Below are positions 6,960 to 28,274 of a stretch of 28,274 nucleotides of DNA, one piece after another (positions within the stretch are counted from its first letter, which is position 1; each line of letters begins with the position of its first letter). The notes under the pieces are model-generated. The model searched no databases, had not been told where the DNA came from, and saw nothing but the letters and a program-made list of their open reading frames with translations. The DNA is from a virus. The stretch lies in the UHGV virus genome UHGV-1752292. One strand, given 5' to 3'. Both the position numbers and the translations under genes were made by a program.

Positions 6960-7216
6960 GTAAGCCTCTTTTAAGTAACTATTAAGTTTTAATCTTTTAT
7001 CTTAACGTATTCTATACGTTATACTTTAAAGCTTTTTAAAAGCTATTAAATAATCTTTTAAGAGTTTTAAAGTATCTGTATAGTTAAACTGTTAAGTAAC
7101 CTTTTAAGTAAAAACCCACTTCGCAAAGATTAACACCTTGTCAAGTACATTGTCAACTTGCTTTTTATAATTTTTTGCAGTAATGTATGAGGTTAATGAT
7201 TTTAGAGGGAGTAAAA
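6960..7216. promoter_or_regulatory. Divergent AT-rich intergenic control region
   Basis: About 255 bp of AT-rich non-coding DNA between divergently transcribed operons; TATAAT at 7166-7171 about 45 nt upstream of the polymerase start; near-palindrome AGCTTTTTAAAAGCT (7030-7044); recurring CTTTTAAG(A/T) motifs. No clean -35 could be paired with the -10. Confidence 0.4.
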
Positions 7217-11540: not shown

Positions 11541-11696
11541 ATGAAACGCAAAGTAAAATTATTTAGCTTATATGGAAGAGTCGGTAAAGGTTTTGATTGG
11601 CAACTGCTACGTTCAGATGTTAAAAGCAACGAGTTAGCACAGCTTATTATAAACTATCGACGAACGTACAGAGAGGTAGAACATCGTGAACAGTAA
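11541..11696 (+). CDS. Hypothetical small protein (51 aa)
   Basis: Not in the ORF track; ATG at 11541 with GGGAG RBS; stop overlaps the GTG start of the next ORF. Confidence 0.3.
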   Translation: MKRKVKLFSLYGRVGKGFDWQLLRSDVKSNELAQLIINYRRTYREVEHREQ

Positions 11697-12156: not shown

Positions 12157-12371
12157 CTGTAGAAGATAAATTTAAGAACGCAGTTCTTACAGAAGATGGT
12201 GAGCTTGAAACATTCATTCTTCGTGTTGATGGTAAGCTATTCCGGTGTCGTTGTGGGTCAAACTGTTTCCATAAACCAGATAAAAATGACTTAGAGCTTT
12301 ACGCATGTAATGCTTGTTACACTTGGTATCACTCAGAGGTTAAAAATGACAATTCTGTACAAACAAAATAA
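12153..12371 (+). CDS. Hypothetical small zinc-ribbon protein
   Basis: 72 aa with CRC…C and C..C pairs (FRCRCGSNCF…ACNACY). Confidence 0.45.
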   Translation: MTVEDKFKNAVLTEDGELETFILRVDGKLFRCRCGSNCFHKPDKNDLELYACNACYTWYHSEVKNDNSVQTK

Positions 12372-13449
12372 AGATGGCTCTTTTAACGTCTGGTCATGCG
12401 TTGCTGTAGGTGACAAAGTTATTACAACCTACGGTAAAGAAAATGGCAAGATGATGTTTGAAGAGTATACAGCAGAACCTAAAAACATCGGTAAAAAGAA
12501 TGAGCGTAACGCTGAACAGCAAGCTCTCTTTGAAGTTGCTGCTAAGTATAAAAAGCAGGTTGACCGCAAAGGTTATGCTTACACAAAAGAGTCTGCACAG
12601 AATACTGAGAAGGTAGGTGTGCAGCTTGCTCATGATGCTGCAAAGGTTAGTCATGCAAAGTATCTGAAGTTCCCTGCTGATGCTCAACCGAAACTTGATG
12701 GTGTACGTTGTAGGATTTCAAGGAACTTGAGCATTGGCAGTGTATTTACAGCATACTCTCGTGAGAATACTGTTTACAAAATCCCTACTGAACTAATACC
12801 TGACATTATGGCAATGTTAAGGCTCCACAAAGATGTTGATGAGTTTGATGGTGAGATTTATGCTCATGGGTGGGACTTAGAAGATATTGTCTCTATGATT
12901 AAAAATGAAGACAATCCTGACCGACACCTACTCAAGTTTTACTGGTACGATATCTGTGATAGTACTAAGACGTGGCCTGAGCGTAGAGATATCATTGAGA
13001 CTTCACCATTGAATGACTTCAGAGACGGCTGTAAAGTTGTTCCTGTTAAGTCTCGTCGTGTAAATTCTTGGGAAGAGTTTGATGAAGCTCATGATAAGTG
13101 GGTTGAAGCTAAGTTTGAAGGTGCAATGTACCGTTCAATCTCTGAAGACTCCTTCTATGAGTGTTGTCACCGTTCATACTTCTTGATTAAGCACAAGAAG
13201 ATGCACACTGAAGAGTTTAAAGTGACTGGTGTAAAGACTGATAAGCGTGGTCATGGCAAGTTCGTTGTAGAGACTCTTCCTAACGTCTTTGTAGATGTCT
13301 CATGGAAGACTACTCATGAGAAGAAACAGTATCTTGCTGAGCATCCTGAAGAGTTTATCGGGAAACCTCTAACGGTTCAGTTCCAGAAGATGACTCGTAA
13401 GGGTTCTTTACAGTTCCCTGTTGGGCTAGTTATTAGGGATTATGAATAA
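12346..13449 (+). CDS. ATP-dependent DNA ligase
   Basis: Start chosen at ATG 12346 (GAGG 6 nt upstream) rather than the in-frame track start at 12310, which overlaps the upstream ORF; adenylation motif I KLDGVRC. Confidence 0.7.
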   Translation: MTILYKQNKDGSFNVWSCVAVGDKVITTYGKENGKMMFEEYTAEPKNIGKKNERNAEQQALFEVAAKYKKQVDRKGYAYTKESAQNTEKVGVQLAHDAAKVSHAKYLKFPADAQPKLDGVRCRISRNLSIGSVFTAYSRENTVYKIPTELIPDIMAMLRLHKDVDEFDGEIYAHGWDLEDIVSMIKNEDNPDRHLLKFYWYDICDSTKTWPERRDIIETSPLNDFRDGCKVVPVKSRRVNSWEEFDEAHDKWVEAKFEGAMYRSISEDSFYECCHRSYFLIKHKKMHTEEFKVTGVKTDKRGHGKFVVETLPNVFVDVSWKTTHEKKQYLAEHPEEFIGKPLTVQFQKMTRKGSLQFPVGLVIRDYE

Positions 13450-13456
13450 AAAGTTG

Positions 13457-13484
13457 TTGACATAGATAATTTGGTGAGTATACT
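13457..13484 (+). promoter_or_regulatory. Near-consensus sigma70-type promoter
   Basis: TTGACA (13457-13462) - 16 nt - TATACT (13479-13484); flanked by a 9-bp inverted repeat (13472-13480 / 13505-13513) spanning the -10 element and predicted start. Confidence 0.5.
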
Positions 13485-13515
13485 GAGCAGCATAAACCAA
13501 CGGGTACTCACCAGC

Positions 13516-13556
13516 ATCACTTAAGAGTCTTCTAAGAGGGTTTTTAAGTGATGTCT
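13516..13556. repeat. 41-nt palindromic element, copy 1
   Basis: ATCACTTAA - 19 nt - TTAAGTGAT (9-bp perfect arms); spacer contains the direct repeat TAAGAG…TAAGAG. 40/41 identical to copy 2. Confidence 0.7.
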
Positions 13557-13608
13557 GGTAAAGTATGGTTCTGTCCGGTAATGCGATGTATGCTATGGTT
13601 TGGTGTGG
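13554..13608 (+). repeat. Pentanucleotide repeat array 1 (11 units, consensus T-N-N-G-G)
   Basis: tctgg taaag tatgg ttctg tccgg taatg cgatg tatgc tatgg tttgg tgtgg: strict 5-nt register with G enriched at positions 4-5. Confidence 0.65.
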
Positions 13609-13614
13609 GTAGTT

Positions 13615-13649
13615 AGTCTCAGCTACATTAAAATGAGACTTACCTTTTT
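13615..13649 (+). terminator. Unit-1 terminal hairpin with downstream T-run (possible terminator)
   Basis: AGTCTCA - gctacattaaaa - TGAGACT (7-bp stem), then tacc and TTTTT (13645-13649); the 4-nt gap before the T-run makes terminator function uncertain. Confidence 0.35.
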
Positions 13650-13675
13650 AAAAGGTCTTTAAGAGGGTCTTTTAA

Positions 13676-13745
13676 TGAGGTTTGTTATGGTCAGGTATGG
13701 TGTGGTGTTGTAAAGTTTGGTGCGGTCAGGTTAGGCTTGGTATGG
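13676..13745 (+). repeat. Pentanucleotide repeat array 2 (14 units, consensus T-N-N-G-G)
   Basis: tgagg tttgt tatgg tcagg tatgg tgtgg tgttg taaag tttgg tgcgg tcagg ttagg cttgg tatgg; preceded by a degenerate copy of the TAAGAGGG element (13655-13675). Confidence 0.7.
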
Positions 13746-13751
13746 GTAGTT

Positions 13752-13777
13752 AATCGAAACTACATAAAAATTCGATT
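13752..13777 (+). other. Unit-2 terminal hairpin (conserved loop, different stem)
   Basis: AATCGAA - actacataaaaa - TTCGATT; an alternative mutually exclusive hairpin GTAGTT - aatcga - AACTAC (13746-13763) overlaps it. Confidence 0.5.
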
Positions 13778-13779
13778 AC

Positions 13780-13820
13780 ATCACTTAAGAGTCTTCTAAG
13801 AGGATTTTTAAGTGATGTCT
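13780..13820. repeat. 41-nt palindromic element, copy 2
   Basis: ATCACTTAAGAGTCTTCTAAGAGGATTTTTAAGTGATGTCT; one substitution relative to copy 1; 264 bp downstream of copy 1. Confidence 0.7.
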
Positions 13821-13877
13821 AGTCAGGTATTGTCCGGTATGGCAAAGCATGGTTCGGTTCGGCAGGGCTTGGTATGG
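13818..13877 (+). repeat. Pentanucleotide repeat array 3 (12 units, consensus T-N-N-G-G)
   Basis: tctag tcagg tattg tccgg tatgg caaag catgg ttcgg ttcgg caggg cttgg tatgg in 5-nt register. Confidence 0.65.
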
Positions 13878-13883
13878 AAGGAT

Positions 13884-13909
13884 GGCAGTAGCCTTATAAA
13901 AAATCTGCC
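13884..13909 (+). other. Unit-3 terminal hairpin
   Basis: GGCAG - tagccttataaaaaat - CTGCC; A-rich 3' half of the loop as in units 1 and 2. Confidence 0.4.
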
Positions 13910-13912
13910 AAA

Positions 13913-13963
13913 TAAGCTATAAAATCTGTTGACAAGTCAGGTGTTATAGCTTATTTTTATACT
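13913..13963 (+). promoter_or_regulatory. 10-bp inverted repeat enclosing a TTGACA hexamer, followed by T-run and TATACT
   Basis: TAAGCTATAA (13913-13922) / TTATAGCTTA (13944-13953) flank TTGACA (13929-13934); TTTTTAT then TATACT (13958-13963) about 40 nt upstream of the 14002 start. -35/-10 spacing of 23 is non-canonical, so this could be an operator, a terminator-like hairpin or a promoter. Confidence 0.3.
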
Positions 13964-14001
13964 CAACGTAATACAAGATTTAATATAACTTTGAGGTCAT
14001 T

Positions 14002-14385
14002 ATGAAAAAGATTTTATTAGCTGCTGCAATGGTTATGGCAATGAATTTACCAGTCAATGCAACAGAACTTCCAAATGTGGACTTATCAGGTGTTCCAGAA
14101 GATACTTGCCAGATTGTAAAAGGTGTTGCTCTGGCTAATGGTGAGTTGCTTAAACCAATCTCTGAAGAGTCTTTAACAGAGATGACTGATAAGGTAACTG
14201 ACTATCAGTATCGTGTTCTTGCAGAGTATTTCCTGCAATCTGCAAATATTAAAGAGAAGCACCCTGATGATATTGATGCGCAGGCTATGCTTAATCATCG
14301 TATCCAGTTTAAAGAGGATTTGATGCAAAAAGCTATGTATGGTGTTGAGTATTTCTTAGAAAACAGAAGCTGCACAGGTATTTGA
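14002..14385 (+). CDS. Small secreted/periplasmic protein with cleavable signal peptide
   Basis: 127 aa; N-terminus MKKILLAAAMVMAMNLPVNA/TE has the positively charged n-region, hydrophobic core and AxA-type cleavage site of a Sec signal peptide; GAGG RBS. Confidence 0.5.
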   Translation: MKKILLAAAMVMAMNLPVNATELPNVDLSGVPEDTCQIVKGVALANGELLKPISEESLTEMTDKVTDYQYRVLAEYFLQSANIKEKHPDDIDAQAMLNHRIQFKEDLMQKAMYGVEYFLENRSCTGI

Positions 14386-14386
14386 T

Positions 14387-14599
14387 ATGGCTCTTAAAAA
14401 GTTACATCCCAGAAGCGGTTATGGTAAGATAATTGATGATACAGACGGCTTTACAGTCTTTACAGTTATCTGTCAAGATGATTCACAGATTGAAAAGGCT
14501 CTTGATGATTATCTTAACGATGAACGTGAAAAGGTTAGGGCTACAAACATAGATTCATTGATTGACACTTCACGAAAACGGAAGAAGAAAGATGAATGA
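14387..14599 (+). CDS. Hypothetical protein
   Basis: 70-aa ORF starting 1 nt after the preceding stop; charged, Lys-rich C-terminus. Confidence 0.45.
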   Translation: MALKKLHPRSGYGKIIDDTDGFTVFTVICQDDSQIEKALDDYLNDEREKVRATNIDSLIDTSRKRKKKDE

Positions 14600-14891
14600 G
14601 GTTTTTGACCCTTATGCTCCACAAGATGATTGGGAGGCTGACAGAGAGGCTGAAATGGAGAGTTATATTTGTCCAATGGATGTAGACGAAATGAGAGACT
14701 TCGTTGCACATCGTTTTAAGAGAGAGATTAAATCCAGAGGTCTTTCTCAAGAGCAAGTTGCTAAAATTTGTGGTATCTCTCAGGCTCGTGTATCCAACAT
14801 AATCAACCTCACTGGTAATGTCTCTCTTGAGTTTATGTTGGAAGTATGTGAAAAATTTGGTGTTAATTTTAATTTAAGGTTGGCAGATTAA
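14592..14891 (+). CDS. Helix-turn-helix (XRE-like) DNA-binding protein
   Basis: Start chosen at ATG 14592 (MNEVFDP…), overlapping the preceding ORF by 8 nt; LSQEQVAKICGISQARVSNIINLTGNVSLEFMLEVCEKFGV resembles the Cro/CI-type HTH. Confidence 0.5.
   Translation: MNEVFDPYAPQDDWEADREAEMESYICPMDVDEMRDFVAHRFKREIKSRGLSQEQVAKICGISQARVSNIINLTGNVSLEFMLEVCEKFGVNFNLRLAD

Positions 14892-21959: not shown

Positions 21960-28274
<6,315 letters not shown>

Follow-up and report, generated by a model that had tools for sequence, protein, structure and literature searches.

Introduction

The first reports of VIPR (Viral Interference Programmable Repeat), an RNA-guided system of DNA recognition for which an origin before CRISPR has been proposed, date from 2026. 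In the parts of the two preprints covered here, its protein component Vipr is described as an ancestral RAMP protein and its guide RNAs (vrRNAs) as stable molecules of about 100 nt that co-purify with Vipr and consist of 9-16 YNNGG repeats and a 3' tail, which takes the form of a pseudoknot in the SUSP1 clade (bioRxiv 10.64898/2026.04.26.720920, 10.64898/2026.04.26.720927). According to the same parts of these sources, each GGY is bound by one Vipr protomer, giving rise to a helical filament that presents the NN dinucleotides, and these dinucleotides pair with double-stranded DNA in such a way that every third target base is skipped and transcription is repressed (bioRxiv 10.64898/2026.04.26.720920, 10.64898/2026.04.26.720927). 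Guides of the SUSP1 clade are stated to aim mostly at an E. coli satellite element, with the skipped base at codon position 3 of natural targets, while the satellites carry vrRNAs of their own (bioRxiv 10.64898/2026.04.26.720920, 10.64898/2026.04.26.720927). The VIPR catalogue, as far as these parts of the preprints describe it, was assembled through protein search, and guide-only phage loci therefore fall outside of it. Here we analyzed a stretch of 28,274 nt from the viral genome UHGV-1752292 (referred to as the window). We estimate a probability of about 0.88 that three vrRNA units in tandem, belonging to type II of the SUSP1 clade, occupy an intergenic gap at positions 13450-14001 of the window, in a Felix O1-like phage (Felixounavirus) and without the vipr gene.

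The type II VIPR system of SUSP1 (Vipr, vap1 and vrRNAs; PDB 36pp) shares with the window the 11-13 GGY/NN pentamers per guide, the pseudoknot in the 3' tail, the layout of the array, a host-type promoter that is predicted here to read the plus strand, satellite matches with a 1-nt skip at the wobble position and a locus homologous to the vipr site in related phages. Unlike that system, the window lacks both vipr and vap1, and its array is shorter by one guide than that of the vipr-bearing counterpart. Guide-only vrRNA loci of satellites likewise combine a Felixounavirus-type pseudoknot tail with the lack of vipr in the element, but they are chromosomal and meet Vipr on infection by a helper phage, whereas the locus in the window belongs to the lytic phage itself.

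Two further systems resemble the array in part. Orphan CRISPR arrays and the solitary repeat units of phages (RNA anti-CRISPRs) are guide or repeat loci without effector genes, for which use in trans or a decoy function is possible. Their repeat-spacer layout differs from the 5-nt scaffold with 2-nt information units found here, and a vrRNA decoy is an analogy only. The TRAP site of the Bacillus trp leader consists of a 3-nt unit, (G/U)AG-N2-3, that is repeated about 11 times with a 5-nt period and binds one subunit per repeat. TRAP forms a closed 11-mer ring that reads the triplets only and ignores spacers without information, while Vipr forms an open helical filament for which the 2-nt spacers are the message.

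Organization of the array in the window

In a blastn comparison positions 13400-14050 matched 259 phage records, almost all of them from Felix O1-like phages, the group from which the window derives. The 552-bp gap at 13450-14001 is devoid of open reading frames (ORFs) and separates a gene encoding an ATP-dependent DNA ligase (12310-13449, identified by Pfam and PHROG hits) from a gene starting at 14002, its 3' neighbour, that encodes a 127-aa protein without an assigned function. Three tandem diverged units of about 130 nt each, which can be aligned with one another, occupy this gap 3' of a near-consensus sigma-70 promoter. Every unit starts with a 17-bp hairpin, continues with 11-13 in-phase GGYNN pentamers and ends in a conserved 38-nt pseudoknot tail. 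The promoter (13457-13484, plus strand, TTGACA-16-TATACT) agrees with the consensus at 11 of 12 positions, is the best one between 6500 and 18500 and is kept in relatives, Felix O1 among them. As a strong promoter of the host type it would drive transcription of the plus strand.

The pentamer periodicity sets the gap apart from its surroundings, since up to 9 of 11 GG dinucleotides are in phase with a period of five in the array compared to at most four anywhere else in the 28-kb window, and this pattern is present on the plus strand only. The predicted array transcript folds far better than shuffled sequence (z = -6.6), and among 64 unique units of related phages there are 62 in which the number of nucleotides from the end of the hairpin to the tail is divisible by 5. 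A scan of the whole window against Rfam at the gathering threshold yielded no matches.

All three guide tracts are encoded on the plus strand and, with 11, 13 and 12 tandem in-phase pentamers of the GGY plus variable NN type, lie within the range of 9-16 that characterizes vrRNAs. The tract of vrRNA A (13552-13606) comprises the 11 pentamers TGTCT GGTAA AGTAT GGTTC TGTCC GGTAA TGCGA TGTAT GCTAT GGTTT GGTGT and thus carries the guide CT AA AT TC CC AA GA AT AT TT GT. The 13 pentamers of vrRNA B (13679-13743) carry the guide TT AT CA AT GT GT AA TT GC CA TA TT AT, and the 12 pentamers of vrRNA C (13816-13875) the guide CT CA AT CC AT AA AT TC TC AG TT AT. A G at pentamer position 2 followed by a pyrimidine at position 3 was present in 9/11 (A), 12/13 (B) and 12/12 (C) pentamers, and tract A is identical in the two vipr-bearing loci L019 and L008.

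The 3' tails correspond in size to the tail of about 40 nt of SUSP1-clade vrRNAs, and all three fit the pseudoknot. In vrRNA A (13607-13644, plus strand) an H-type pseudoknot with the helices S1 GUAG/CUAC and S2 AGUCUCA/UGAGACU is followed by a U-run, while the tails of vrRNA B (13744-13781, plus strand; S1 GUAG/CUAC, S2 AAUCGAA/UUCGAUU) and vrRNA C (13876-13913, plus strand; S1 AAGG/CCUU, S2 UGGCAG/CUGCCA) form the same structure from partly different sequences. Among 18 distinct phage and satellite tails the two interleaved helices with their 12 pairs were paired in 87.5% of the cells and 9 of the 12 pairs had changed on both sides. In controls with the partner shifted by 1-3 columns, pairing fell to 26-45%. 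Comparison of unit C of the window with that of JK55 (reverse complement of L158:12770-13520), both of which are vipr-less, revealed differences in 1/24 guide dinucleotide positions and 5/36 positions of the GGY scaffold, a pattern that reverses the usual one but with numbers that are too small to interpret.

Vipr and Vap adjoin the same array in related phages

A scan of IMG/VR for six consecutive GGTNN identified non-coding arrays in at least 49 unrelated contigs, with 9-71 pentamers and diverse NN. Clustering of the flanking ORFs revealed that, among the matches listed, one family of proteins of about 200 aa adjoins the arrays in 31 of 49 diverse viral loci. This family includes a 195-aa ORF of Felixounaviruses that is located inside the very array described above, and its product matches PDB 36pp, 'SUSP1 Vipr protein', with E=1.5e-127. 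In the relatives of the window vipr is followed by a 146-aa ORF, the accessory gene vap. Searches of Pfam, PHROGs and NCBIfam gave no function for either the neighbouring small genes or Vipr. The same array was present 5' of the 127-aa gene in 23 related viral contigs with one to three units, and in 14 of these 23 a second block is located 1.3 kb upstream with the two ORFs (195 aa and 146 aa) in between.

The arrays in unrelated viruses (L028-L147, e.g. L063:2217-3406, L121:1845-3304 as well as L051:3396-3843 and L060:8967-10720 on the minus strand) include variants with 13 units each ending in GGAAU GGUUU, with units 3 nt apart and with in-phase runs of 58-71 pentamers. In 7 loci among the matches listed, arrays are adjoined by another protein family (about 160-175 aa), which may represent an accessory gene. 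In public records vrRNA arrays are annotated as a bare repeat_region in humlepung (L001:3232-3281) and two other entries, while small 'hypothetical protein' ORFs were called on the array of UAB_Phi87 (L002:3054-3268). Both the repeat_region of humlepung and the small ORFs of UAB_Phi87 are likely mis-annotated non-coding RNA.

Putative targets in an E. coli satellite element

The satellite was located through the 265-aa baseplate gene of the phage, which lies next to the tape measure gene. A search of 5,426 complete E. coli genomes showed that 474 contain a fragment of this gene with 92-94% identity, whereas the 325-aa baseplate hub gene used as bait retrieved nothing at the DNA or protein level. 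Nine satellites, together with seven further copies of one of the target genes, were then scanned with NN-x patterns of the three guides. Guide A matched at 20/22 positions in a 236-aa coding sequence annotated as transposase (L153:11607, plus strand, 11607-11638), guide B at 24/26 positions in a 184-aa hypothetical coding sequence (position 973 of both L161 and L162, minus strand, L161:973-1010) and guide C at 22/24 positions in a gene of the same 184-aa family (L156:6968, minus strand, 6968-7002; also L164 and L165). These scores were reached by 0/300 order-shuffled versions of each guide, with null maxima of 19, 21 and 20 for A, B and C, respectively. The coordinates place the skipped base at codon position 3 (wobble) at all three sites.

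No comparable guide site was found inside the window, where the best match reached 73%, and the array itself had no blastn match in the E. coli genomes. Exact full-length 1-nt-skip patterns of guides B and C had no match in IMG/VR; exact patterns of this type miss natural targets because these carry 1-2 mismatches. At the level of sequence, the guides of the window behave as VIPR guides do, with NN dinucleotides that specify DNA with a 1-nt skip in competing mobile elements, and the three of them would be directed against two genes of the satellite, which is integrated in E. coli chromosomes.

This satellite (L148:5944-20110, L149-L156) is a mosaic element of about 10-14 kb with recombinase, Dam methylase, helix-turn-helix (HTH), tape measure and baseplate genes, which occurs in roughly 470-560 of the 5,426 complete E. 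coli genomes and is carried, for example, by strain C4 (NZ_CP010121). Its insertion sites are mdtG, the DUF72 gene adjacent to yecD and the interval from yciI to tonB, and its baseplate gene shares 92-94% DNA identity with positions 26951-27748 of the window over 68% of the gene length. Four of the nine satellites encode one vrRNA each on the minus strand (L152:5180-5229, L153:6918-6982, L154:6927-6991 and L156:5068-5132), with a Felixounavirus-like pseudoknot tail. In a variant of the satellite tail the second helix covaries, with GUCG/CGAC in place of GGUAG/CUACC. None of the nine satellites examined carries vipr, and their vrRNAs must therefore rely on the Vipr of the infecting phage.

Absence of vipr and comparison with vipr-bearing loci

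The RAMP homologue of about 200 aa that is found beside vrRNAs elsewhere was not detected in the window by tblastn with Vipr, and the 146-aa ORF corresponding to vap1 of type II is absent from the window as well. Because vipr is missing here while the homologous site holds it inside this array in 14 related loci (99-100% protein identity), the window represents a guide array and not a complete VIPR system. Without vipr or vap in the window its guides need Vipr in trans, and they could not act unless it were supplied, for example, by a co-infecting vipr-bearing relative.

The locus L019 contains the same three guides as well as a fourth unit, vipr and vap. Compared with L019 the window is without a stretch of 1.28 kb, comprising one guide, vipr and vap, and the flanks of the two are 91-97% identical. 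Their alignment consists of two blocks that meet inside a hairpin between guides A and B (13643-13680, plus strand; type 2 in the following), and in L019 the extra 1.28 kb is flanked by two directly repeated copies, about 38 bp long, of the sequence of this hairpin. In the simplest reading of this arrangement, recombination between the hairpin repeats would have led to loss, or reciprocally to gain, of the vipr-vap cassette. Vipr and Vap (L003-L025, vipr at about 954-1680) share 99-100% protein identity in 14 contigs compared to about 91-97% identity of the array-flanking DNA; this higher conservation points to movement of the cassette between Felixounaviruses by recombination.

Vipr-less arrays are not restricted to the window. 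The array was present in 231-259 phage records and Felixounavirus-type Vipr in 118, so that about half of the array-bearing records are without vipr. In tblastn searches vipr was located at a single place in each of the 60 vipr-bearing records listed, with 131 places in 130 records overall. Neither Felix O1, with one unit, nor JK55, with three, encodes a homologue of Vipr or Vap anywhere in its complete genome. The Felix O1 unit (L027:12631-12914, NC_005282 57631-57914) lies in an unannotated gap of the 86-kb genome, exhibits the order promoter, hairpin, tract and pseudoknot, and comprises 11 pentamers, 6 of which are perfect GGY.

Fate of the vipr-less array

Among the explanations for an array without its protein gene, the one we place closest to even odds, if slightly below them, is that of an inert remnant from which vipr and vap were lost via recombination between the hairpin repeats, with too little time elapsed for the guides to decay. 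The three guides are identical to those of the vipr-bearing L019 within flanks of 91-97% identity, no source of Vipr was detected in the satellites or, within the sensitivity of blastn, in the 5,426 complete E. coli genomes, and vipr-less arrays are shorter than vipr-bearing ones (1-3 versus 4-5 units). On the other hand, the vipr-less state accounts for about half of all array-bearing records, and vipr-less arrays of one, two or three units occur in at least 11 loci, none of which shows apparent damage to the promoter, the hairpins or the pseudoknot tails. GGY integrity amounts to 70% in orphan arrays compared to 76% in vipr-linked ones, a gap that is too small to show decay of the orphans. 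Matches to the sampled satellites were obtained for 9/18 orphan guides versus 29/43 vipr-linked guides, and 15/18 orphan guides were not seen in the vipr-bearing sample.

It is rather doubtful, if still worth weighing, that the orphan array is kept since it is useful in trans, either loaded by the Vipr of a co-infecting relative or acting as a decoy that soaks up Vipr. Guide-only loci that borrow Vipr do exist, as illustrated by the four of nine satellites with a phage-like-tail vrRNA and no vipr, and that satellites encode vrRNAs of their own is also stated in the covered parts of the VIPR preprints. Vipr is at least 99% identical across vipr-bearing Felixounaviruses, so that any guide with these tails should be compatible with it, and orphan arrays keep the near-consensus promoter. 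The same data, however, fit repeated recent deletions equally well. A wider version of this proposal, to which we assign only about one chance in four's worth of credence, holds that guide-only arrays in lytic Felixounaviruses including Felix O1 are kept by selection, for Vipr borrowing against a shared satellite or as decoys, and that the hairpins would serve both as processing or boundary signals and as recombination points of the cassette. The parts of the two VIPR preprints covered here contain no mention of guide-only arrays in lytic phages or of hairpin spacers that double as recombination points.

Palindromes between the guides

The first-pass annotation of this DNA had drawn attention to recurrent palindromes in the gap, for which it favoured a role as operators bound by an XRE-type HTH protein encoded at 14592-14891 and, as a fallback, suggested that each could be the 5' hairpin of a small RNA unit. 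The 41-nt element is indeed present twice, at 13516-13556 and 13780-13820, with one base difference (G to A), and its 37-nt core has 2 matches in the window compared to 0 expected. As described there, the 9-nt arms ATCACTTAA (13516-13524) and TTAAGTGAT (13544-13552) are perfectly complementary, and the stem reaches 17 bp when G·U pairs are included. The resulting type 1 hairpins span 13516-13552 and 13780-13816 on the plus strand, the second copy having been recovered by core search, fold and conserved structure. What had been listed as a degenerate third copy at 13655-13675 is real and constitutes the second, homologous hairpin type, AAAAGGUCUUU-AAG-AGGGUCUUUU.

A consensus fold of 17 pairs was obtained from 28 distinct hairpin copies. 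Between the two types 5 stem pairs differ on both sides with pairing kept, and three near-invariant stem pairs are G·U or U·G, for which the other strand would give C·A. The TAAGAG motif is positioned at the apex or loop of the stem and varies in relatives (CUAAGA, UGAAAA, UAAACA and UGGAGA), including a 20-nt insertion in one phage. Because the G·U pairs are kept, the changes are compensatory and the TAAGAG loop is variable, we read the palindromes as hairpins of the plus-strand RNA. They are placed exactly where the tail of one guide has ended and the pentamers of its successor are about to begin, and every vrRNA start has such a hairpin, in other phages also the start that precedes vipr. 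The fallback proposal was thus essentially right, with each palindrome preceding one guide-RNA unit. Tract and tail together measure about 95-105 nt, the reported size of the mature vrRNA, from which we infer that the hairpin lies outside of the mature guide as a boundary or processing element; as unit boundaries the hairpins could be processing or stability elements, or filament stops.

That the palindromes are DNA operators, with the XRE-type HTH protein or another repressor binding TTAAGAG dyads and controlling the promoters of the gap, is highly improbable in comparison. Palindromes near promoters are typical operators, the HTH_3 protein is encoded 0.6 kb downstream, and the dyads at 13472-13513 and 13910-13956 overlap promoter elements, namely the -10 box of the array promoter and the -35 box of a second promoter. 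However, the two 41-nt palindromes are located 30 and 290 nt downstream of the promoter rather than on it, within the transcribed region and in register with the guide units, one per RNA unit. The sequence-conserved, strand-independent half-sites at a promoter that characterize XRE/Cro operators were not found in these elements; their stems need the strand-specific G·U pairs of the plus-strand RNA, pairing persists through compensatory changes, and the TAAGAG apex is variable and tolerates the 20-nt insertion. The presence of the same hairpins at every vrRNA start, also in front of vipr, argues against operators as well, and no evidence ties the HTH protein to the elements.

The count of TTAAGAG that had been suggested for this motif gave 16 occurrences in the window versus 7.3 expected, three of them in the array and most of the others in coding sequence. 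The motif is also present in the divergent control region at 7058, as had been pointed out, but in an AT-rich context; since hairpin and pentamers are absent there, no link between this site and the array was seen. A 21-bp tandem repeat (7034-7077, 2 copies, 78% matches), located in the AT-rich divergent region between leftward genes and a 737-aa ORF at 7187, is unrelated to the vrRNA hairpins.

Least probable of all is a function of the G-rich tracts without Vipr, be it as a transcription-primed origin (R-loop), as two-tetrad G-quadruplexes or as a TRAP-like ring site, for although the strong promoter, the G-rich and C-poor non-template strand, the position among replication genes and the roughly 11 repeats with a 5-nt period, which recall TRAP sites, would fit such roles, pentamer position 1 tolerates A or U while positions 2-3 stay G-Y, unlike the need of a quadruplex, tract length varies from 9-19 pentamers in these phages and up to 59-71 in phase in other viral contigs, which excludes a fixed ring, and the period is accounted for by a dedicated partner protein whose filament structure has been solved, while the NN carry target information. 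The TRAP-like ring binder, the two-tetrad G-quadruplexes and the R-loop origin were dropped after the partner protein had been identified and tract lengths had proven variable. Primase-site arrays, Chi-like sites, an anti-Shine-Dalgarno or tRNA-CCA sponge, a type III antitoxin-like RNA and a boxA-like element in the hairpin were dropped on the same grounds.

Promoter-associated dyads and terminator

The inverted repeat TGGTGAGTA/TACTCACCA (13472-13480/13505-13513), which had been noted before and proved to be a perfect 9-nt repeat, covers the -10 box and leader of the array promoter (13472-13513). If transcription starts near 13491, the likely site, the 5' arm lies upstream of the start and the repeat cannot form an RNA hairpin. 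This dyad is conserved in relatives and may be a genuine regulatory site.

The dyad reported around the TTGACA at 13929 exists but is longer than originally described, with arms of 19 nt (13910-13928/13938-13956) that are 89% complementary. On the plus strand it is followed by a U-run (RNA fold -17.8 kcal/mol, z = -4.5), the features of a probable intrinsic terminator at 13910-13956. A promoter-like site of the 127-aa gene at 14002 (13929-13957, plus strand, TTGACA-17-TATTTT) agrees with the consensus at 10/12 positions. The dyad probably terminates the array and would hold the -35 box of this next promoter in its loop.

Discussion

Several observations weigh against the interpretation of the gap as a vipr-less vrRNA array. 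The window covers 28 kb of a genome of about 87 kb, and vipr could be located elsewhere in it. Perfect GGY is found in only 5/11 (A), 10/13 (B) and 8/12 (C) pentamers, i.e. 45-77%; the low count of unit A is offset by the presence of an identical unit A in vipr-bearing phages. The covered parts of the two VIPR preprints, by reading or term search, contain no mention of inter-guide hairpins or their role. The compensatory changes in these hairpins separate just two paralogous types and hence represent few independent events, promoter and terminator of the array are called from consensus matches only, and the target matches come from 16 hand-picked satellite fragments, not from a pangenome search.

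With the gap read as a vrRNA array, sequence is sufficient for recognizing the guide half of a VIPR system, the signature being GGYNN tracts with a period of 5 and a pseudoknot tail behind them. For annotation, this accounts for the intergenic repeat_region in humlepung and two other records as well as for the spurious small ORFs in UAB_Phi87. About half of the array-bearing Felix O1-like phages are without vipr and keep promoters, tails and satellite-directed guides. This raises the questions of whether guide-only arrays are used in trans or as decoys, and of how the vipr cassette is gained and lost at the hairpin repeats.

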